A DNA stretch of 28,164 nucleotides from Promethearchaeota archaeon (GTDB lineage: Archaea > Asgardarchaeota > Lokiarchaeia > Sigyniarchaeales > SOKP01): positions 1 to 28,164 of the forward strand of contig JAHLWH010000157.1 of the NCBI GenBank assembly GCA_019058015.1, read 5' to 3'. Below the pieces are notes generated by a model that was given only the letters and a program-made list of their open reading frames with translations, made no database searches and was not told the DNA's origin. A program made the position numbers and the translations under genes. Positions 4,388 through 27,859 of this stretch are shown piece after piece. Position 1 is the stretch's first letter. Each line of letters begins with the position of its first letter.

Positions 4388-6580
4388 ATGGAACAGGAAA
4401 AACCAATATTAAAACCTATAAAACCTCCAATCAAACCTATAGTTGTTAAAGAACCGGCTAAAGTTAAGAAAATAAAAGAGAAGACAATAAAGATGACGTT
4501 AGAAAAAAATATTAAAAGTCTTGTCCATTTTATGGCATTTCCAGGGCCTCGATTAGGTAGGAGCACAATTTATGGTGAAGCTCCTGAAAAGTATATGCTA
4601 GATTCCATAAATTGGATCGGAAAACACGGCTTTTTTAAAGGAATTGAGATCACTCTTATAAAAGATCACGAGATCCGACAAAAAGTTATTAATTTATTAA
4701 AAAAATACAAGTTTTACATTACATTTTGCGCTCAACCAATTCAACTAATTAATGAAGATAATTTAATTGCACAAACAGATATCAGTTCAATTGATGAGTT
4801 AGAAAGAACTAACGCAGTCAATCGTCTTAAACATTACATAATTGAAGCCTATGAATTTGGAGCAATTAATTTCTGTTTTTTAAGCGGTAAGGATCCAGGG
4901 ACTGAGAATGGATTACGTTTAAGACGGCAGGCAACACAATCTTTAATTCGTTCAATTCATGAAATTTGTGTTTATAATAAAAGTATTGCTAAAAAATTGA
5001 ATAAAAGGCCTATGAAAATCACATTGGAAACCTTTGACAGGCTTTCAGATAAAAATTGTAAAAACCAATTGATTGGGCCTTCTGATGAAGCAAGAGAACT
5101 TGCTGAAATAGTTAGAAACAATTATGGTCATGATATTTTCGGTATCTTATATGATTTAAGTCATATGTTTTTATTAAGGAATGGATTTGATCATGAAGAA
5201 GCAAATGTATTGCGTTCGCTTGCTCCATATTTAAATTTTATTCATATTGCAAATACAATTATTGATAAAGAGCATCCTCAATATGGCGACGCTCATGTGG
5301 GGATGGACCATCCAGATGGAGCTGTAACTTCTGAAATACTAGCAAATTTTGTAAAAACATTAAATGAGATTAATTATAAAAATCCAATTGGTTTTGAGTT
5401 TATACCACAAGGAAGACAATTAAGTGAATCGGTTGTTAATATTGCAGTTGCATCGTATAAGGAAGCAGCTGAACAGATTGATGTTAATTATGCATTAGGG
5501 GCATATAGATTTAAGACACGTAGATTTCTTCCTGAAAAGATTTTCTATATGATTACAGATTATAGACTAAACAGCTATGAGATTATTCGACAGGAAATGA
5601 AAAATCGGCAGAGAAGAGAAAGACCTTGGGGAGATAATTTGATTATTATAGCTGCAGATCATCCAGCGAGAAGAGTTACTCGAGTGGGAGAAAATGATTT
5701 AGCGATGGGAGATAGACAACAGTATTTAGGTAGAATTTTAAGAGTTCTGATTCATGACCGAGTTGATGGTGTAATGACTACCCCAGATATTATGGATGAT
5801 TTATTTTTGATTAATTACTTCTATAAAGAAAATGGTGGGGAATCATTTTTGGATAATAAAATATTGTTGGGATGCACTAATAGAGGTGGATTGTCCGGGT
5901 CTTCTTACGAAATGGATGATTTATTAACAGCGTATACAGTAGAAGATATTATAAATTGCAATTTAGATGGCGCAAAAATGATGTTCAGAATTGATTTAGA
6001 AACACGTCAAGCAAGATATAGTCAAAGGACAATTGAAATATGCTCGAAAATCATTAGAGCATGTAATAAAAACAATATTCCTGCATTTGTTGAGCCATTA
6101 CCGGTGTATAGAGAAAAAGATGGAACTTATGTTGTTCAATATAATGCCGATGATATAATTAAGGCTATTGGGATTGCAACGGCGTTAGGTGGTTCTTCAA
6201 GTAATATTTGGTTAAAAATTCCATATGTTGCAAATTTTGAGCAAGTTGTAAGGAGTACAAGCAATCCTATTTTAATGCTAGGAGGAGAAAGCACAGGCAA
6301 TCCAACTGATATCTTGGAAAATTTTGAAAGAGGCTTAGGTGCTGGTCCAAATGTAAAAGGATGTTTAGTGGGTAGGAATTTATTATATCCTGGATTCGAC
6401 GATCCATACGCTTCTGCAGTTGCTGTATCACGAATACTTCATGATTATGATAATACAGAAAAGGCGGTAAAAGAATTAGCGAAAAATCGAGCAAAACGTA
6501 TGGATTTTTTCACATCAATAATATTGGGAATTCATACAGAAGCTGAGAAGGAGTTTAGTTATCCTTCGGAATTAACTTAA
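4388..6580 (+). CDS. Fusion: sugar-phosphate isomerase/epimerase TIM barrel + class I aldolase (Cgl0159-like)
   Basis: N-terminal half has xylose-isomerase-like metal ligands (LETFD, YDLSH, IHIAN, DAH, GFEF). C-terminal half has IIAADHPAR, NRGGLSG, DGAKMM, FVEPLP, WLKIP and GCLVGRNLLYP. Confidence 0.8.
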   Translation: MEQEKPILKPIKPPIKPIVVKEPAKVKKIKEKTIKMTLEKNIKSLVHFMAFPGPRLGRSTIYGEAPEKYMLDSINWIGKHGFFKGIEITLIKDHEIRQKVINLLKKYKFYITFCAQPIQLINEDNLIAQTDISSIDELERTNAVNRLKHYIIEAYEFGAINFCFLSGKDPGTENGLRLRRQATQSLIRSIHEICVYNKSIAKKLNKRPMKITLETFDRLSDKNCKNQLIGPSDEARELAEIVRNNYGHDIFGILYDLSHMFLLRNGFDHEEANVLRSLAPYLNFIHIANTIIDKEHPQYGDAHVGMDHPDGAVTSEILANFVKTLNEINYKNPIGFEFIPQGRQLSESVVNIAVASYKEAAEQIDVNYALGAYRFKTRRFLPEKIFYMITDYRLNSYEIIRQEMKNRQRRERPWGDNLIIIAADHPARRVTRVGENDLAMGDRQQYLGRILRVLIHDRVDGVMTTPDIMDDLFLINYFYKENGGESFLDNKILLGCTNRGGLSGSSYEMDDLLTAYTVEDIINCNLDGAKMMFRIDLETRQARYSQRTIEICSKIIRACNKNNIPAFVEPLPVYREKDGTYVVQYNADDIIKAIGIATALGGSSSNIWLKIPYVANFEQVVRSTSNPILMLGGESTGNPTDILENFERGLGAGPNVKGCLVGRNLLYPGFDDPYASAVAVSRILHDYDNTEKAVKELAKNRAKRMDFFTSIILGIHTEAEKEFSYPSELT

Positions 6581-18434: not shown

Positions 18435-19130
18435 CTAAACAAAACTATTTAAATTGGCAAATTTTATACCCTTTACTTTCATATTTGACAATGTTTGGGA
18501 AATATTTCCTTCTGGTATATCTATTCCTCTAGTTAAATCTACAATGAAATAGACTTTGAATCCAAAATCAACTCCATCCATTGCGGTAAAATAACAACAA
18601 TAATCTAATGCAAGACCACAAATGAAAACTCTCTTAATTTTTAATGATTTCAACAATCCAGAAAGACCCGTTTCAGTTTTTTTATCATTTTCAAGAAACC
18701 CTGAATAACTATCAATTTCTGGATTCATTCCTTTTCGAATTATAGCTCTTGCATAGGATATTTCTAATGAATTATGAAATTCTGCTCCATAAGTTCCTTG
18801 AACGCAGTGATTAGGCCATAGAACTGGACCTATTGCTTCAGTTTGGTATTCATCTCCTGGATTCTTTCCAGGATGATTACTGGCAAAGGATTTATGAGTA
18901 CTAGGATGCCAATCTTGAGTTAATACTATGGATCCCACTTTTTCATAAAAGATTTTGATTATCTTATTAATTCCAGGGATAATTTGATTAGCTTCTCTTA
19001 CGGGTAAAGCACCACCCAGCATAAAATCATTCTGCATGTCAATAATAATAAATACATCATTACTAGAAATTGTAATATCTTTTACATATTTAATCTCGTC
19101 AAAATCCAAGTTAATCACTACTTTAAACAT
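18435..19130 (-). CDS. pncA: Nicotinamidase/pyrazinamidase
   Basis: IDMQNDF, QDWHP..H.SF, WPNHCVQGT, RKG...DSYSGF and GLALDYC. Confidence 0.93.
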   Translation of the reverse strand: MFKVVINLDFDEIKYVKDITISSNDVFIIIDMQNDFMLGGALPVREANQIIPGINKIIKIFYEKVGSIVLTQDWHPSTHKSFASNHPGKNPGDEYQTEAIGPVLWPNHCVQGTYGAEFHNSLEISYARAIIRKGMNPEIDSYSGFLENDKKTETGLSGLLKSLKIKRVFICGLALDYCCYFTAMDGVDFGFKVYFIVDLTRGIDIPEGNISQTLSNMKVKGIKFANLNSFV

Positions 19131-19406
19131 TTTTAATTTTCATTCTTTATAGTTTACTATACAGATATTAATTTTGTCCTAGATATAATTTAATAAGGGG
19201 ATTTGAAACTTTTTCTTTATTCAAATGCATTTTTCTTTATAAAGTATAATCTTTTATTCTAATTCTTCTTCTAAGTTTTAGATCAAAATGACTAAGATAC
19301 AAATCACTTCAAATATGACTTTTCATCACTGAATTTAATACTCAATCGAATTTTTACCTTCTTATACCTTCGTAATTAAATCCATATCTTTAAAAGCGGA
19401 ACACAA

Positions 19407-19415
19407 TTATATAAA
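19407..19415 (+). promoter_or_regulatory. Candidate TATA box of the his operon leader
   Basis: TTATATAAA lies about 30 nt upstream of the start of the structured leader. The background is AT-rich, so this is weak evidence. Confidence 0.4.
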
Positions 19416-19442
19416 GTAGTGCATGAAAAATGATTAGTAGAA

Positions 19443-19610
19443 AATTCTATTCTTTTTCAAAATCGAAAATCAGTTTTGATTTTATTTTTCATATTTTGCA
19501 CTTATAACCCGCATCATCATAAGCAACATAGCTGATGATGCTAAAATGCAACATTGTTTTTGAATTCTATTCTATATTTTTTCTTGGATTAAAACAGTTT
19601 TAGAATAGAA
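19443..19610 (+). promoter_or_regulatory. Structured his-operon leader (putative attenuator)
   Basis: Stems at 19459-19468/19474-19483, GCATCATCA 19511-19519/TGATGATGC 19533-19541, and TTCTATTCTA 19565-19574/TAGAATAGAA 19601-19610. AATTCTATTCT is repeated at 19443 and 19563, which allows alternative pairing. Confidence 0.55.
19476..19535 (+). CDS. Putative His-rich leader peptide (M)ILFFIFCTYNPHHHKQHS
   Basis: TTG-started 19-codon ORF with CAT CAT CAT AAG CAA CAT (4 His in 6 codons) directly upstream of hisC. Confidence 0.45.
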   Translation: MILFFIFCTYNPHHHKQHS

Positions 19611-19685
19611 ACCATAACAAAACATAATTAAAAATAGAGGTAATAAAAATGAAACTGAAAGGTGAATATATTCATCAATAAAAAG

Positions 19686-20849
19686 ATGAAAAAATTAAAA
19701 TCAAGTCTTGAAAAGGAAATTCAAGCAAAATCTAACATTCAAAATATGATAAAATATGATCCCCCATTAGAACAGAGACAGGGGAAAATTCGTTTAGATT
19801 TTAATGAGAATACATTTGGATGTTCTCCTAAAGTATTGGAAAGATTCCAAAAAATATCAATTGAAGATTTTTCTATATATCCAGAGAATAATACTTTTCG
19901 ACTAAAATTGGCAAAATTTCTTAATCTTTTTCCCTCAGAAGTGCTGCCATCTAATGGTACTGATGAAGCAATAAAAATAATTATGGATGCTTATCTTGAT
20001 ACTGACCAAGAATTAATTTTATTAACACCATCGTTTACAATGTACGAGATTTATGCTTTAATTGCTGGAGCAAAAATTCGACCCATCCTTTATAAAGCAG
20101 ATTTTTCCTTTCCTTTGGAGGCTATTTTAGCTGCAATTTCACAAACTACAAGAATGATAATTATTGGTAATCCAAACAACCCAACTGGCACTATTGTTAA
20201 ACAAACAGACATAGAGAGAATTTTAAAAAAAGCAAAAAATGCACTTGTTATTATTGACGAAGCATATTTTCACTATTATGGAAAATCTTCAATGGGACTA
20301 ATTCGATCTTACTCGAATTTAGTTGTCCTCCAGACTTTTTCAAAAGCTTTTGGATTAGCAGGATTGAGAATAGGGTACATTATGGCAAATTCAGCAATAA
20401 TTGAAACGCTTCAGAAAGTTATTTCCCCTTATAGTGTTAACAAATTTGCACAAATTGCAGCAATAGCATCAATAGAAGATATGGGTTTTATCAACCAAAA
20501 AGTTGAAGAAGTTCGGAAGAATCGTCAGTTCTCAATAAATCAATTACAGAATTTGGGTATAAAAGTAATTCCTTCAGAAGCAAATTTCATAATTGCATAT
20601 TTTGGAGAAAAAATGCAAAAAGTTTACACTCTTCTGAATAATTTTGGAATTCTTGTACGAGATCAAAGTAAAAAACCACTATTAAAAAATTATCTTCGTA
20701 TTACTATTGGTACAAAAGAAGAATGCATTTTGCTAGTAAAAGCAATACAACAAATTTATTCGGAAATTGAACAAGATTCAGTAAATAAAATACCATATTT
20801 GAAAAATTTGAGCAAAATTGACAATCAAAATTATGGAGAGAGACAATAA
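19686..20849 (+). CDS. hisC: Histidinol-phosphate aminotransferase
   Basis: RLDFNEN, NGTDE, NPNNPTG, IDEAY and TFSKAFGLAGLRIGY. Start is either ATG 19686 or GTG 19662. Confidence 0.95.
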   Translation: MKKLKSSLEKEIQAKSNIQNMIKYDPPLEQRQGKIRLDFNENTFGCSPKVLERFQKISIEDFSIYPENNTFRLKLAKFLNLFPSEVLPSNGTDEAIKIIMDAYLDTDQELILLTPSFTMYEIYALIAGAKIRPILYKADFSFPLEAILAAISQTTRMIIIGNPNNPTGTIVKQTDIERILKKAKNALVIIDEAYFHYYGKSSMGLIRSYSNLVVLQTFSKAFGLAGLRIGYIMANSAIIETLQKVISPYSVNKFAQIAAIASIEDMGFINQKVEEVRKNRQFSINQLQNLGIKVIPSEANFIIAYFGEKMQKVYTLLNNFGILVRDQSKKPLLKNYLRITIGTKEECILLVKAIQQIYSEIEQDSVNKIPYLKNLSKIDNQNYGERQ

Positions 20850-20850
20850 A

Positions 20851-21438
20851 ATGAGAAAAGCATCCGTAAATTGTCAGACAAAAGAAACAAAAATTGATAT
20901 CAGCTTAAATGTAGATGGAAAAGGTAAATATAATATTTCATCACCAATTGCATTTCTATCTCATATGTTAGAATCATTCGCTAAACATGGACTATTTGAT
21001 ATTTCTCTAAAAGCAGAGGGAGATATGCAAGTGGATCAGCATCATACAGTTGAAGATTGTGGAATTATCCTTGGAATGGTATTCAATAAAGCATTGGGCT
21101 CAAAAAAGGGAATTAATAGAGCAGGATATTTTGTTTTTCCTATGGATGATGCATTGGCTTCAGTTTCAGTTGATCTTAGTGGAAGGCCATTCTTAATTTA
21201 TAATGTTCAGTTTACAAGACATTTTTGCGGTGATTTTGATACAGATTTGCTTAAAGATTTCTTTCAAGGTTTTGCAGTTAATTTAAAAGCAAATATCGCA
21301 ATTCAGCTTTTATATGGAAAAAATGATCATCACAAGATAGAAGCAATATTCAAGGCACTTGGGAAAGCTATGAAGATGGCCTGTTCAATTGATCCAAGAT
21401 TAGGAGAAAATATTTTAAGTACAAAGGGGCGTTTATAA
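20851..21438 (+). CDS. hisB: Imidazoleglycerol-phosphate dehydratase (monofunctional)
   Basis: TKET, HML, HHTVED, PMDDAL and NDHHKIEAIFKA. ATG at 20851 follows GGAGAG and sits 1 nt after the hisC stop. Confidence 0.96.
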   Translation: MRKASVNCQTKETKIDISLNVDGKGKYNISSPIAFLSHMLESFAKHGLFDISLKAEGDMQVDQHHTVEDCGIILGMVFNKALGSKKGINRAGYFVFPMDDALASVSVDLSGRPFLIYNVQFTRHFCGDFDTDLLKDFFQGFAVNLKANIAIQLLYGKNDHHKIEAIFKALGKAMKMACSIDPRLGENILSTKGRL

Positions 21439-22019
21439 TGATCACAATAATTGATTATGGAGTAGGAAATATTAAAAGTGTACAAAAAGCATTTACAAAG
21501 ATAGGAATAAAATCCATTATTTCAACAGAATCCCAAAAAATTGAGGAAGCAACTAAGCTTGTTCTTCCCGGAGTAGGAAATTTTGGCGATACTATGCAAG
21601 AACTTCGAAAACTAGGGTTTGATAAGATTCTTATTACTAAAATACAAGAAGAAACCCCATTTTTAGGAATTTGTGTTGGTATGCAAATATTGTTTGAAAC
21701 AAGCAGTGAAGCTGAAGGGATTAATGGACTAGGAATTTTTCGAGGACGCGTACAAAAATTCACACAAGGAAAGGTACCTCATATTGGCTGGAATGAAATT
21801 ATTCCAAGAAAGTCAAGAGTACTTAAAAAGGGATATGTATATTTTGCTAATTCATTTTATGTTGTACTAAAAGATGATTCAATCATTTCCGCAGAAACAG
21901 ATTATTTTGTACGATTTGCCAGTGCAATTGAAAAGGATAAAATTACAGCATTTCAATTTCATCCAGAAAAAAGTGGAGTATTTGGTCTAAATACATTAAA
22001 GAGGTGGGCAAAATGTTAG
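21438..22019 (+). CDS. hisH: Imidazole glycerol phosphate synthase, glutaminase subunit
   Basis: IDYGVGN, LPGVG, GICVGMQ, PHIGWN and QFHPEKSG. TAATG overlap with hisB. Confidence 0.96.
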   Translation: MITIIDYGVGNIKSVQKAFTKIGIKSIISTESQKIEEATKLVLPGVGNFGDTMQELRKLGFDKILITKIQEETPFLGICVGMQILFETSSEAEGINGLGIFRGRVQKFTQGKVPHIGWNEIIPRKSRVLKKGYVYFANSFYVVLKDDSIISAETDYFVRFASAIEKDKITAFQFHPEKSGVFGLNTLKRWAKC

Positions 22020-22777
22020 CAAAACGGATAATTCCTTGTTTGGATATCAACAGAGAACGCGTAGTAAAAGGAATAAATTTCAAAAATCTTAAAGATATTG
22101 GAAATCCTCTTGAACTAGCAAGATATTATTCGAATTCTGGAGCAGACGAGATAAGTTTTCTAGATATTACAGCATCTTATGAAAATCGTAAAATAATTCT
22201 TGAACTCGTGAAATCAGTAGCAAATGAAGTTTTTATTCCATTATCTGTTGGAGGTGGAATTCGAACAATAGAAGAAATTCAATCTATTTTAGCTGCAGGT
22301 GCAGAAAAAGTAAGCATTGGTACCAGCGCCGTTCAAAACCCACAGTTAATTGCAAAGGCTGCAAATAAGTTTGGAAATCAAGCAATTGTTCTTTCAATAG
22401 ACGTTCAGCGTTCTTCTTCAATGAAAAATGGCTGGGAAGTTTATATCAATGGTGGAAGAAAACCAACTGGGTTAGATGCATTAGAATTTGCACAAAAAAT
22501 GGAAAACTTAGGATCAGGTGAAATTTTATTAAATTCAATCGATCGTGATGGGACAAGACTAGGCTATGATCTTGAATTAATTAAATTATTTAATGAAAAT
22601 CTGAAGGTTCCAATTATTGCATCTGGTGGAGCAGGTACTTTAGAGAACATTCTAGATGTTTTTACAATTGGAGGTGCAGATGCAGCTCTTGTAGCTTCAC
22701 TTTTTCATTACAAAAATTATAAGATTACGGAAGTTAAAAAATATTTGCGAAAGCACAAAGTGGAGGTGCGTCTTTAA
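22013..22777 (+). CDS. hisF: Imidazole glycerol phosphate synthase, cyclase subunit
   Basis: MLAKRIIPCLD, FLDITAS, VGGGIR, SIDRDGT and IASGGAG. SD GAGGTG at 22001. Confidence 0.97.
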   Translation: MLAKRIIPCLDINRERVVKGINFKNLKDIGNPLELARYYSNSGADEISFLDITASYENRKIILELVKSVANEVFIPLSVGGGIRTIEEIQSILAAGAEKVSIGTSAVQNPQLIAKAANKFGNQAIVLSIDVQRSSSMKNGWEVYINGGRKPTGLDALEFAQKMENLGSGEILLNSIDRDGTRLGYDLELIKLFNENLKVPIIASGGAGTLENILDVFTIGGADAALVASLFHYKNYKITEVKKYLRKHKVEVRL

Positions 22778-24000
22778 TGCTAATTCCAAGCATTGATTTG
22801 ATGAATAATAAGGCAGTTCAACTTCAACAAGGGAAAACAAAAATATTAGAAAGAGATGATGTTCTTGAATTGGCAAAAGAATTTCAAAAATATGGAGAAA
22901 TTGCGGTTATTGATCTTGATGCAGCCCTCAATCAAGGTGATAATATTGAACTCATTAAGAAAATCTTAAAAATTGCAGAGTGCCGTGTTGGAGGTGGAAT
23001 TCGCACACTTGAAAAGGCAAATCAAATTTTGCAATTGGGTGCAAAAAAAATTTTTATTGGAACTAAAGCATACCCAACATTTCTACAGAAATTACCTAAA
23101 GATCGAATAATTGTTGCAATTGATACGAGAAATGATGTTGTTGTAAATGAAGGTTGGACAAAACCCACACAAAAGACACCTAAAATGATGATTAAAGAAT
23201 TAGAAAAATATTGCTCTGAATTTTTATTTACAAATATAAATATGGAAGGATTGATGAAAGGGATAGATTTCGATTTAGTTAGAGAATTAAGACAATTAAC
23301 TAAAAAAGAATTTACCGTTGCAGGGGGAATTACAAATCTTGATGACATCAGATTTTTAGAGAAATTAAATTGTAATTCACAAATAGGAATGGCAATATAC
23401 ACAGGAAGATTAAATCTTATGGATGCTTTCATCTCAGTTCTTGATTTTAAAAAGAATAACGGATTAATTCCAACAATTGTGCAAGAGAAAAATGGACAAG
23501 TGCTAATGCTTGCATATTCCTCAAAAGAATCTTTAAAACTAACATTTCAATCAAGAAAAGCAACATATTATAGTCGATCTCGAGAAAAAATTTGGATAAA
23601 AGGTGAAACATCAAATAATCATCAAGAATTAATCTATGCAAGATATGATTGCGATAAAGATACAATACTTTTCAAGGTTAAACAACATAATTTTGCTTGC
23701 CATCTGGGACGATATTCTTGTTTTGAACAAAAAAACTTTACATTAAATGAGTTATTTGATGTTATTAAATCAAGATTAAAGGTATATTCAAAAGATTCAT
23801 ATACATCCCAAATATCACAAGATGAAGAGAAAATCAAAGCAAAAATCTTGGAAGAGACAAAGGAAATTCTAAATTATACATCAGTAGACAATCTCATTTG
23901 GGAAATTGCTGATTTAACCTACTTTATTCTGGTTTTAATGGCAAAAAAAGGGATTTCTCTTAATGATATTAAAAATGAACTATGGAGACGACGAAAATGA
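22777..24000 (+). CDS. hisAIE: Trifunctional HisA-HisI-HisE fusion
   Basis: HisA barrel (IPSIDL, IDLDAA, VGGGIR, AGG) is in frame with HisI (VLMLAY, SRSR..W.KGETS, DCDKD, ACH...SCF) and HisE (SYT, KILEE, EIADL.Y). Confidence 0.92.
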   Translation: MLIPSIDLMNNKAVQLQQGKTKILERDDVLELAKEFQKYGEIAVIDLDAALNQGDNIELIKKILKIAECRVGGGIRTLEKANQILQLGAKKIFIGTKAYPTFLQKLPKDRIIVAIDTRNDVVVNEGWTKPTQKTPKMMIKELEKYCSEFLFTNINMEGLMKGIDFDLVRELRQLTKKEFTVAGGITNLDDIRFLEKLNCNSQIGMAIYTGRLNLMDAFISVLDFKKNNGLIPTIVQEKNGQVLMLAYSSKESLKLTFQSRKATYYSRSREKIWIKGETSNNHQELIYARYDCDKDTILFKVKQHNFACHLGRYSCFEQKNFTLNELFDVIKSRLKVYSKDSYTSQISQDEEKIKAKILEETKEILNYTSVDNLIWEIADLTYFILVLMAKKGISLNDIKNELWRRRK

Positions 24001-25034
24001 CTGGTATTCAAATTCAGATGGGAATTCCATCTAAGGGAAGGATGGGAAAAGAAACTAAAAATTTTTTGAATAAATGTGGATTGACAGTAATTCGAAGAAA
24101 ACGAGAATATCTAGGAAGAATTTTGACAATTCCGGAAATTCAACTTATTTTTCAACGACAAAAGGACATTCTTCGTGGAGTAGAAAATGAGTCTTTAAGT
24201 TTTGGAATTATTGGATATGATTTATTAAAAGAATATGCTAATTTAGCTGGAAATGAAGTCGTAATTCTTCATGACGGACTTGGATTTGGAAAATGTACAC
24301 TAGAGCTTGCAATTCCTGAAGGATGGAAAGAAGATTCTCTTGTACAAATTCTTAAGAATAAAAAGAAAATTCGTATTGCAACAAAATACACTCGGCTTGC
24401 AAGGCAATTTCAAGAAGTATGCAAGGACCAATTTGAAATTATTAATGGAACTGGATCTATTGAAGTATTCCCAACATTAGGATATTCTGATGCAATAATT
24501 GATTTAGTTTCAACTGGGCAAACAATTAAAGATAATCGATTGAAACGCATAAGTGGAGGAATAATTCTCAAATCCCAAGCAATCTTCATTGGAAATCGAA
24601 AAATGCTTAAAAATCCCAAAATTTTAGCAGTAGCTAAAGAAATACTTGAATATTTTGAGGCAACAATACGTGCTAATGAATATCTTCAAATTTTTGCAAA
24701 TATGAAAGAATCTGATCCAAAAAAGATAGCTCAAGCACTTTTTTCAATTCCTGAACTAGCAGGATTACAAGGACCAACAATTTCACCAGTTTACAAAAAA
24801 GATGGGACACTATGGAATGCAATTCACATTATTGTCAAAAAGAATCAGCTTCAAGAAGCTATTCAATCGCTCAGAAAAATTGGAGGTAGTGGAGTAATTG
24901 TTTCACCAGCATTGTATATTTTCGAAGAAGAACCACCACAATACCTTAATTTATTACGTGAAATGCAAAATGAATCAAAAAATAATGGAAAAGGATGTGA
25001 GGAATATGGAGATCCTAACCTTAAAATATTATAA
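23997..25034 (+). CDS. hisG: ATP phosphoribosyltransferase, long form
   Basis: PSKGR, GFGKC.L, ATKY and DAIIDLVSTGQT, plus a C-terminal regulatory domain. ATGA overlap with the preceding gene at 23997-24000. Confidence 0.96.
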   Translation: MTGIQIQMGIPSKGRMGKETKNFLNKCGLTVIRRKREYLGRILTIPEIQLIFQRQKDILRGVENESLSFGIIGYDLLKEYANLAGNEVVILHDGLGFGKCTLELAIPEGWKEDSLVQILKNKKKIRIATKYTRLARQFQEVCKDQFEIINGTGSIEVFPTLGYSDAIIDLVSTGQTIKDNRLKRISGGIILKSQAIFIGNRKMLKNPKILAVAKEILEYFEATIRANEYLQIFANMKESDPKKIAQALFSIPELAGLQGPTISPVYKKDGTLWNAIHIIVKKNQLQEAIQSLRKIGGSGVIVSPALYIFEEEPPQYLNLLREMQNESKNNGKGCEEYGDPNLKIL

Positions 25035-26256
25035 ACGTAAGCATTTTGATTATACAGAAATGTTTGAATTAAAAAAAGTTAGAAAAATTTTAAAATCAGT
25101 AAAAAGAAATGGAGATTCCGCAATCAAGCACTATACAAAACAATTTGATGAAGTTAATTTAGAGAAAATTCAAATTCCAGAAGAAAGAATTACAGAAATC
25201 TACAAATCTGCTGATCCAAAATTAATTGAACTTCTACAATATGCTACAAATCGAATACAACTTTTTGCATCAAAACAACTAGAATCTTTCAAAAATCTTG
25301 AAATAAAGATTGAAGATTCAATCATTGGACAAAAAATTGTGCCTATACAAAAAGTAGGATGCTATGTTCCAGGAGGACGTTTTCCTCTTATTTCTACTGC
25401 ATTGATGACAGTCATTCCTGCAAAAGTAGCTGGAGTGAAGGAAATATTTGTATGTTCCCCAAAAATTCATTCAATAACAATACTTGCAGCAAAAATTGCT
25501 GGTGCGGATCGAATATTCAATATGGGAGGAGTACAGGCAATAGCTGCTTTTGCATTCGGAACTGAATCTGTACCAAAAGTCGATAAAATTGTTGGACCTG
25601 GTAATAAATATGTTACAGCTGCAAAAAAAGAAGTATACGGAACAGTGGGAATTGATTTTCTTGCAGGACCTAGTGAAATATTAATTATTGCAGACGAAAC
25701 GGCTATACCAGAATTTATTGCTGCAGATCTTCTTGCACAAGCAGAACATGATCCAAATTCTATTCCGGAACTAATTACAACATCTCCTCAACTTGCAGAA
25801 AAAGTCAATCAACAACTAAAAATTCAACTTTCTAATTTAACGACAAAAAAAACTGCAGAAAGTGCATTAAAGAATGGAAAAATAATTCTTACAGATTCTA
25901 TACTAGATGCTATAAAAATGTCAAATAATATCGCTCCAGAACATTTAGAAATTCATATTTCCAATCCAGATCTAATAATTGATAAATTATATAATTATGG
26001 TTCCTTATTCATTGGGAATTATTCTGCGGAAACATTTGGAGACTATTGTAGCGGAACTAACCATATACTTCCTACAAATGGGGCAGCACGTTACACAGGA
26101 GGACTATCAGTAAAAAATTTCATTAAAATCCAAACATATCAAAAAATTGGCAAGAAAGATGCAAAAAAAATAAGTCAAATTACAGAAAACCTTGCAGAAA
26201 TAGAAGGATTATATGCACATAAAAATGCATCCATAATTCGTTTTAAATCTTTGTGA
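25006..26256 (+). CDS. hisD: Histidinol dehydrogenase
   Basis: [36 protein letters not shown] and [13 protein letters not shown]. Likely ATG at 25006 after GAGGA. Confidence 0.96.
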
Positions 26257-26518: not shown

Positions 26519-27859
26519 TTAAAGGTTTAATGTTTTTATTAGAAGATTGTTGTGGTAAACCAAGAGATTCCTGCCAAGGTTTGTCTCTTGGACCTCAACA
26601 TTTTTCCCTGCTAATTTATAATCGATAGTATAGAACTTTCCCTTATAAGATATTTGACCGCTATAGGTGATTTTTCTCCTTTTTTTAGCGTTTTTTTTCG
26701 GTGTAATTAAGATCTGATACGGATGGGTTATTAATAATTTATCTTTGGAATATAACTCTAATTTATTTTCATATTCAAGCACATCAATCCTTGAACCTGA
26801 ATATCCTGGCGGAACATCAAAAGCTTGGGACTTATATGATATTTGGTTGTATTTATTGACCTTTCTTTGCGACAACTCGTGAAGCCATCTCTCCCAATTC
26901 ACCTGCGTTTGAAGTGGTCTAAAAATACGATCTTTCATTTCAAAAAAGATTTTTGCAGGCGGTCCTTTATTAGCTAACATGCGATGAGGTTTTTTGGTAT
27001 TATACCAATTTAACCATTCCTTAAATTTTTGGTTAAAATCTGCCAGGGAACACTGAGGATTGTTATTGACATAATGCCTTCCTTCAATTAAAAACATTTG
27101 AACGACTGTGCCAAACCATCTTTCGAGCTTTCCTTTAGTTTGGGGGTGATATGGTTTAGCAAAAATAGGCTTAATATCCATAGACTCGAGAAGTTTTGAA
27201 TATTTAGTTCCTAAATCCCCAATTACATTACGAAATTGAAGTCCGTTATCGGCAAGGATCTGGTTTGGTCTTCCATAAGCCATAATAGCATCTCGGATAA
27301 TTTTTATTATATTTGTCCCTTTTTGGCCCCCAAAATATTCCGCTGCCAATATGAACCTCGAGCAATCGTCCAGTAAACCTACCAAATACAATTGCTTTAA
27401 ATGGCCAATAGTTTGAACGCCTGCAATATCAATTTGCCACAGATCATTTGGTTTTTTCCTTTCAAATTTGATATATCCCTGTTTTCGGTATTCAGATTTA
27501 TAAGTAAGCCCTTGATCTCGAATAAATTTTCGAATTGTTGATATAGAAGGGTAGGAGTTTGGATATTCGTTTCTCAGTATTTTATGTACTAATGGTGCGC
27601 TTCTCTGTGGTAATTCCTCCTTTAATTCCACAATCCGATTAAATATTATAGACGGATATTTTTTTGGACGACCCGATTCCTTTTTAGAATTTTGGGAGAC
27701 GAGGGAATTTTCTTGGTTTACACATTTAAGCCATCTATAAATGGTTCTCAAGGATTTTCCAAAATGAATTGCGAGTTCTTTGTGTGAAAGACCTTGATTA
27801 TAATGCATTTCTTTCACTTCATCATATAAATCCTTTTTTATTTTATCTTTCATATCCAT
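26519..27859 (-). CDS. DDE transposase/integrase (rve core, IS481-like) with N-terminal HTH and duplicated Mu-transposase-C-like beta domain
   Basis: HTH GLSHKELA...SLRTIYRW. Catalytic WQID / ADNG / KGKLER. Two C-terminal RK(V/I)xxxxQISYK repeats. Confidence 0.93.
   Translation of the reverse strand: MDMKDKIKKDLYDEVKEMHYNQGLSHKELAIHFGKSLRTIYRWLKCVNQENSLVSQNSKKESGRPKKYPSIIFNRIVELKEELPQRSAPLVHKILRNEYPNSYPSISTIRKFIRDQGLTYKSEYRKQGYIKFERKKPNDLWQIDIAGVQTIGHLKQLYLVGLLDDCSRFILAAEYFGGQKGTNIIKIIRDAIMAYGRPNQILADNGLQFRNVIGDLGTKYSKLLESMDIKPIFAKPYHPQTKGKLERWFGTVVQMFLIEGRHYVNNNPQCSLADFNQKFKEWLNWYNTKKPHRMLANKGPPAKIFFEMKDRIFRPLQTQVNWERWLHELSQRKVNKYNQISYKSQAFDVPPGYSGSRIDVLEYENKLELYSKDKLLITHPYQILITPKKNAKKRRKITYSGQISYKGKFYTIDYKLAGKNVEVQETNLGRNLLVYHNNLLIKTLNL

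Follow-up and report, generated by a model that had tools for sequence, protein, structure and literature searches.

A candidate histidine-codon leader upstream of a rearranged his operon in a Promethearchaeota archaeon, with a natural frameshift allele

On balance, we lean towards reading the region upstream of the his operon described here as the leader of a rearranged operon, in which a short ORF rich in His codons would act as a gauge of the histidine supply. The operon lies in a 28,164-nt stretch of DNA (the window, meaning the whole stretch that was analysed), which is contig C155 of a 3.84-Mb archaeal MAG of about 30% G+C. An earlier note on this DNA had proposed that a leader peptide senses histidine. 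That idea has since gained support from (i), an in-frame His tail in orthologous leaders, (ii), the rarity of such tails and (iii), His-tailed leaders in relatives of the organism, while the switch between RNA stems that formed the other half of the proposal was not supported.

The operon reads away from a nicotinamidase-like gene (18435-19130) that is divergent from it, leaving an intergenic region of 555 nt, and is made up as follows:

19686..26256, plus strand: his operon, hisC, hisB, hisH, hisF, hisA-IE fusion, hisG and hisD, in that order
22777-24000, plus strand: hisA-hisIE fusion gene, inside the his operon

The gene order hisC-B-H-F-AIE-G-D had been given correctly in the earlier note, and the host is indeed archaeal, as judged from a 16S model match, an archaeal proteasome beta subunit and the compositional profile of the genome. 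All seven his genes (7/7) are intact and 96-98% identical to their counterparts in the genus-mate G001. Their order is a circular permutation of the (A)IE-G-D-C-B-H-A-F order found in relatives: hisD immediately precedes hisC in 72 of 80 loci of other organisms, so that hisC is not the first gene there. A HisD search indicated that the operon is absent from two of four genus-mates, and no ArgJ or TrpA family match was obtained in the source genome (94% complete) with the queries used; from these missing matches, histidine may be one of the few amino acids that the organism makes itself.

Several further observations concern the surroundings of the operon. Synteny between the window and G001 stops at about 19140, where the nicotinamidase-like gene has no counterpart (311 of 579 aligned bases are identical, which is noise); the his operon thus travels with about 490 nt of upstream DNA. 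Within that DNA, a 63-nt stretch (19282-19344) is confined to the window and is skipped in the G001, L043, X5 and X16 contigs. In hisC (19686-20849), the window and G001 differ by 25 amino-acid-changing and 14 silent codon differences, a larger share of amino-acid-changing differences than in the other six his genes, and this pattern suggests relaxed or changing selection. Directly after hisD lies a transposase gene (26519-27859, minus strand), whose product combines an rve integrase core with a Mu-type C-terminal domain; it may be connected with the rearrangement or the patchy distribution of the operon.

The orthologous leaders available for comparison come from G001, from the metagenome contig L043, which is nearly identical to G001, and from contigs of the DNA runs X5 and X16; with the window included, they amount to three distinct and independent haplotypes only. 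G001 (L006:1586-1690) and L043 (2216-2320) carry an ATG-started ORF of 34 codons, MISGKFYSYLKSKISFDFTFHILHYNPHHHKQHS, and the X5 haplotype, rebuilt from a mapped contig, reads MISRKFYSYSKSKISFDFSFHILHYNPHHHKQHS. The ortholog ORF ends in FHILHYNPHHHKQHS followed by the stop. Its last 12 codons include five for His and its last 14 include six, of which three stand in a row. The corresponding elements of the window copy are:

19430..19507, plus strand: leader ORF in its source-genome form, ATG 19430, 25 codons (MISRKFYSFSKSKISFDFIFHILHL), stop TAA 19505-07
19502..19503, plus strand: extra T, one of two Ts, absent in the G001, L043, X5 and X16 contigs
19503..19538, plus strand: His tail in the shifted frame, TAT AAC CCG CAT CAT CAT AAG CAA CAT AGC, then TGA TGA
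19476..19535, plus strand: TTG-started ORF of the earlier note, 19 codons, TGA 19533-35, reading (M)ILFFIFCTYNPHHHKQHS and ending in NPHHHKQHS

The 25-codon ORF is the 5' part of the orthologs' 34-codon ORF and stops four bases before the hairpin formed by the His codons (hairpin 1, below). The extra T, an insertion of 1 nt, stands 9 nt ahead of the His run, which it puts out of the frame of ATG 19430, and the ORF consequently stops early at TAA 19505-07; in X5 and X16, both of them runs covering the site, one base is left out at 19503. The same stretch forms the C-terminus of the ortholog peptides, ...HYNPHHHKQHS, followed by two stops. ATG 19430, which the earlier note had overlooked, opens the leader frame that is conserved in relatives. 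Because the extra T ends the ORF before the His run, sensing is probably lost in the window copy, and, provided that the weak TTG 19476 is not used, the +T allele would be a natural allele that has lost sensing.

That TTG had been taken as the start of the leader peptide. Its letters are present as described, but the leader role does not carry over to the other sequences: the TTG frame reads the His run because the window copy carries the extra T, the same TTG in G001 opens MILLFIFCTTTRIIINN..., and in the other three sequences the TTG frame has Ile codons across CATCATCAT. A short ORF with its His codons in frame with a credible start (ATG) exists in the orthologs; in the window copy, the run can be read from TTG 19476 only, which lacks an SD, as the caveat attached to the original proposal had stated. 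Neither is there a clear SD before ATG 19430, the 3' end of the 16S rRNA being GGATCACCTCCT. The promoter geometry bears on this start as well:

19407..19415, plus strand: TATA-like box, TTATATAAA, with its core TATATAAA kept in G001, a candidate promoter

In the usual archaeal geometry, a box at 19407-15 would place the transcription start near 19435-19440. With the box so close, the transcript might start a few bases after ATG 19430, and this spacing is a weakness of the leader-ORF reading. Two other small ORFs lie between the leader ORF and hisC:

19535..19603, plus strand: second small ORF, 22 codons, its ATG overlapping the leader stop (TGATG; TAATG in G001)
19637..19681, plus strand: uORF, GAGGT (which matches the anti-SD), ATG 19649, 10 codons

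The second small ORF, whose C-terminal half varies between strains, may be a simple consequence of the palindrome described below. The uORF was rejected as a candidate, since ATA replaces its ATG in G001 and X5 lacks 6 nt at 19646.

How the leader has changed between haplotypes speaks on both sides. When the window is aligned with G001, identity comes to 92.6% for 19131-19685 and to 92.8% for 19430-19610, whereas the third codon positions of the his genes reach 93.4-96.1%. Conservation of the leader is below that of his-gene silent sites, and this counts against the sensor reading. Indels of 1, 6 and 63 nt separate the haplotypes, and the ORF is broken in the source genome while the his genes are intact. 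All this would fit a leader with no function at all, in which a His-tailed ORF and a palindrome arose by chance in an A/T-rich, fast-evolving promoter region; in a variant of this explanation, an inverted duplication of the type (CAT)n/(ATG)n could have made both the ORF tail and the palindrome. That very many windows were screened is a further point in its favour. The distribution of the changes along the ORF argues the other way: between the window and G001, all four substitutions (4/4) in its N-terminal part change an amino acid, whereas all three (3/3) in the His tail, at 19505, 19523 and 19534, are silent or exchange one stop for another. The tail moreover stands on the sense strand, directly before a his operon. 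The proposed comparison of regions upstream of homologous operons had a divided outcome: in the orthologs, the His run is kept in the frame of ATG 19430, but the stems around it show no covariation.

The reach of this comparison is set by how few close relatives carry the operon. A DNA search with the leader in 41 relatives matched G001 only, and G001 was likewise the only genome with a HisC above 90% identity among 61 family genomes or a HisD above 90% identity among 151 class genomes. In a scan of HisC from species representatives, the next-best match apart from a near-identical sequence reached at most 49%. The closest other HisD is 56% identical (in G040), and its contig has a probably shortened hisG and no usable leader. 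On the contig concerned (L127, G040:C256), the hisG match at 5375-5932 (minus strand) starts at query residue 150 and is probably truncated, and no his gene lies upstream of it.

Background counts were used to ask how often such a tail arises by chance. Outside long ORFs (808,075 nt), three consecutive His codons, (CAY)3, occur 37 times, which corresponds to 2.3e-5 per strand position; at this rate, about 0.006-0.013 occurrences would be expected on the sense strand of this leader. Among 17,309 small ORFs outside long ORFs in the source genome, eight have at least four His in their last 12 codons and none (0/17,309) has at least five. For six of the other seven four-His ORFs, the downstream ORFs were viewed, and none was his-related by eye. 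No background ORF thus matches the His tail, and this, together with the silent changes in the tail and with the independent family of His-tailed leaders in relatives described below, argues against the absence of function, which we regard as unlikely.

A different explanation of the conserved tail is that the 34-aa ORF makes a small His-rich protein with a function of its own, for instance metal binding, and is not a codon sensor. The conservation of the His-rich C-terminus speaks for such a protein, but the N-terminal part changes freely and the ORF is broken in the source genome; a search of 1.84 billion representative sequences gave no relatives save two matches inside long unrelated proteins, and the analogous ORFs of relatives have only the His tail in common. 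We find this explanation hardly credible.

The RNA stems invoked in the earlier note can be found in the window, together with two bare T runs:

19511..19541, plus strand: hairpin 1, GCATCATCA (19511-19) pairing with TGATGATGC (19533-41), perfect 9 bp, 13-nt loop
19565..19610, plus strand: hairpin 2, 19565-74/19601-10, 10-bp A/U-rich stem, 26-nt loop
19557..19582, plus strand: T runs, T5 at 19557-61 and T6 at 19577-82, candidate archaeal termination signals, the T5 runs being kept in G001

The 9-bp stem is just as it had been described, its 5' arm consisting of the His codons and its 3' arm of the stop codons together with ATG 19535. The letters of the second, 10-bp stem and of its duplicated 5' arm at 19443 are likewise in place: one copy of the repeat AATTCTATTCT lies within the leader ORF at 19443-53 and the other at 19563-73, and 19445-53 is complementary to 19602-10. 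So are those of a third stem, AAAATC at 19459-64 and GATTTT at 19478-83, which flank the TTG. Perfect 9-bp inverted repeats with a loop of 3-20 nt number 31 in 786,430 nt if at least four G/C are required and 805, or about one per kb, if any composition is allowed; the GC-containing hairpin 1 is thus unusual, and the A/U-only stems are not.

The earlier note had joined these elements into a terminator/antiterminator attenuator, in which the TTG-19476 peptide governs three competing sets of stems that possibly hide or expose the U tracts. The ORF, the stems and the T runs do exist, and the whole leader folds better than its shuffles (z -3.1; 1 of 200). Several results speak against the model. 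Hairpin 1 is intact in the X5 contig, and G19534A breaks one of its pairs in G001 and X16, uncompensated; in hairpin 2, G19603T breaks one pair in G001, X5 and X16, where the loop also has a 6-nt insertion. Over all sites paired in the MFE fold, seven of ten substitutions break the pair, three keep it by a change on one side and none is compensated, which speaks against a conserved set of mutually exclusive stems. When the footprint of a ribosome on the His run or on the stop was masked, the downstream helices stayed unchanged in the folds of both the window and G001, so that no ribosome-driven switch was obtained. Nor does a terminator of the hairpin-plus-T type occur: 19131-19720 holds no terminator-like site (0), only the bare T5 and T6 runs. 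Add to this that A/U-only 9-bp inverted repeats arise about once per kb, that the His run stands in the TTG frame in the window copy only and that the TTG has no SD, and the attenuator in this form becomes very unlikely. Two other pairings were considered and set aside. Pairing between the middle of the leader ORF and the hisC start (-13.9 kcal/mol; 22 of 1000 shuffles as good) is matched equally by three of nine unrelated gene starts, and a long-range helix in the MFE fold (19470-97/19631-58) is not conserved, its register differing in G001 and a 6-nt deletion affecting it in X5.

The earlier note had also allowed that the palindrome is a DNA element. As an operator, GCATCATCA-N13-TGATGATGC would be the binding site of a dimeric factor that controls transcription of the his operon, and the His codons would be incidental. 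Perfect GC-containing inverted repeats are rare (31 in 786 kb, as above), and the half-sites lie about two helical turns apart. The palindrome CATCATCA...TGATGATG is nevertheless unique in the source genome, G001 and X16 have an uncompensated change in one arm, there is no adjacent regulator gene, and an operator leaves the ORF and the His codons outside the arms unexplained. We consider it quite unlikely.

On the minus strand, the same letters could be read as an antisense C/D-box small RNA, with a C box (AUGAUGA, 19520-14) and a D box (CUGA, 19473-70) whose spacing of 40 nt fits, and Rfam snoZ118 gives a weak match at 19450-19525 (minus strand; 21.8 bits, E 0.42). This score falls well short of the gathering score of 48, however; the inner boxes (C' and D') are degenerate, one of the guides contains the 1-nt indel, and the GC-containing guide, with up to one mismatch allowed, has no match on the 16S rRNA contigs C75 and C111. 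We give this RNA almost no credence. In the Rfam scan of 18900-19900 (E up to 10), no family was significant and neither His_leader (RF00514) nor a T-box was matched, and a tRNA search of the leader region gave no match.

The reading that we favour, that of a His-codon ORF acting as a histidine gauge, suggests the following chain of events. The intact ORF would be translated, and ribosomes would pause on the His codons when charged tRNA-His is scarce; pausing there would change expression of the downstream his genes. The His codons and the stops being the arms of hairpin 1, a pausing or terminating ribosome would have to open it, so that the position of the ribosome would decide whether hairpin 1 is present. 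Within the next 150 nt come the T5 and T6 runs, hairpin 2 and the hisC start, and what is controlled could be either transcript termination at these runs or the accessibility of the hisC start. In this chain we infer the translation of the ORF, the pausing, and both the direction and the level (transcriptional or translational) of control.

The closest known comparison is the enterobacterial hisL attenuator (RF00514), leader-peptide attenuation being a textbook bacterial mechanism. Both have a short His-codon ORF directly upstream of the operon on the same strand, with codons that overlap a hairpin. E. coli hisL has seven His codons in a row, and leaders of the window type have three consecutive ones and six in 14. 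Unlike hisL, the window leader is archaeal and has neither an RF00514 match, nor a GC-rich terminator, nor supported antiterminator/terminator alternatives; its output could be translational, or could come about through oligo-T or factor-dependent termination. A further comparison is with translational attenuation of the ermC/cat type, which works by stalling on a leader peptide: a stalled ribosome could keep the downstream RNA open with no need for a terminator, which suits an archaeon. The likeness ends where, unlike in ermC/cat, the pairing of the leader with the hisC start is unspecific and the signal would be missing charged tRNA and not a drug.

Other Promethearchaeia carry His-tailed leaders of their own. 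HisD was located in 86 of 151 class genomes, and 40 his loci were taken, in which the his genes were mapped with tblastn. Besides the layout of the window, two others were found, namely hisIE (or hisA-IE), G, D, C, B, H, A, F and hisG, D, C. Thirteen of the 38 his-operon upstream regions that were long enough contain an ORF of 36-54 aa with a His-rich tail, which stops about 85 nt before the first his gene; all 13 loci have the hisIE-first layout. We call this family R1:

L130-L136, L143, L144, L150, L156, L157 and L166: R1 loci (example L144:4963-5201)

The R1 tails include HHWLHHE, HLHHHQHHK and EHHHLHYK, and only M1 and an HH pair are invariant in the peptide alignment. The stop is followed by a 12-bp hairpin, an 8-bp hairpin, UUU-GGGGG (the SD) and then the ATG. 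In these hairpins, 93% of cells pair and seven of 20 pairs are changed on both sides; shuffles gave 2.0 +/- 1.1 such pairs, with none of 500 reaching seven, and slid controls gave 2-3. A covariance model of R1 gave exactly one hit each in 14 of 151 genomes, from two genera, with members scoring 86-149 bits; thirteen of these hits fall on the loci used for training, and the remaining one, too, is located upstream of a HisD match. R1 matched no Rfam family, and no publication on a leader of this type was found.

R1 and the window leader resemble each other in that an ATG-started small ORF with a His-rich C-terminus precedes the first his gene and has its stop codon at the base of a hairpin; they occur in the same class, on the same pathway and 85-150 nt before that gene, a likeness of layout and not of descent. 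They differ in that the R1 hairpins covary and none does in the window leader, whose first gene is hisC. Nhmmer with R1 found no hit in the source genome (E up to 10), the best window hit of the R1 covariance model (19487-19543) reached 14.8 bits with an E of 5, and hhalign of the R1 peptide against the window leader peptide gave a probability of 1%, with only the His tail aligning. As judged from these sequence comparisons, the window leader is not a member of the R1 family. R1 not being homologous to it, the His tail would have arisen twice independently, and nothing argues more strongly for the His codons as the functional part than this layout shared by two unrelated leaders. The broader claim, that His-codon leader ORFs at Asgard his operons (hisIE-first and hisC-first) evolved at least twice independently, is tentative, and we hold its chances to be a little short of even.

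A different gene of the source genome offers a possible parallel. An ATG-started ORF of 26 codons with a Leu/Val-rich tail, ...ALLFVLLLVVVLSLVL (G000, the source genome, C129:19291-19371, plus strand, equivalent to L182:192-272), precedes leuS (L182:461-3241; TIGR00396, 966 bits), which begins 188 nt after it. Three genus-mates (DNA identity 85-90%) retain both the ORF and its tail, with changes that mostly swap or create Leu codons, and an aminoacyl-tRNA synthetase gene may here have a leader with cognate codons. Among those W-, R-, V- and M-tailed ORFs of the source genome whose downstream products were inspected by eye, only the leuS case was cognate-linked.

Full-text searches gave no paper on leader-peptide attenuation in archaea, nor on this leader. 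The novelty lies in a leader that is independent of R1 and not homologous to it, on a permuted operon, along with a natural frameshift allele. If the reading is right, ribosome-based sensing of charged tRNA would be a recurrent and selected form of regulation in archaea; a second, unrelated His-tailed leader in the lineage closest to eukaryotes would argue for selection and not for an accident of one family. The +T allele would then be a natural knock-out of the sensor beside intact alleles in related populations, and this pair of intact and frameshifted alleles would give a direct handle on the mechanism.
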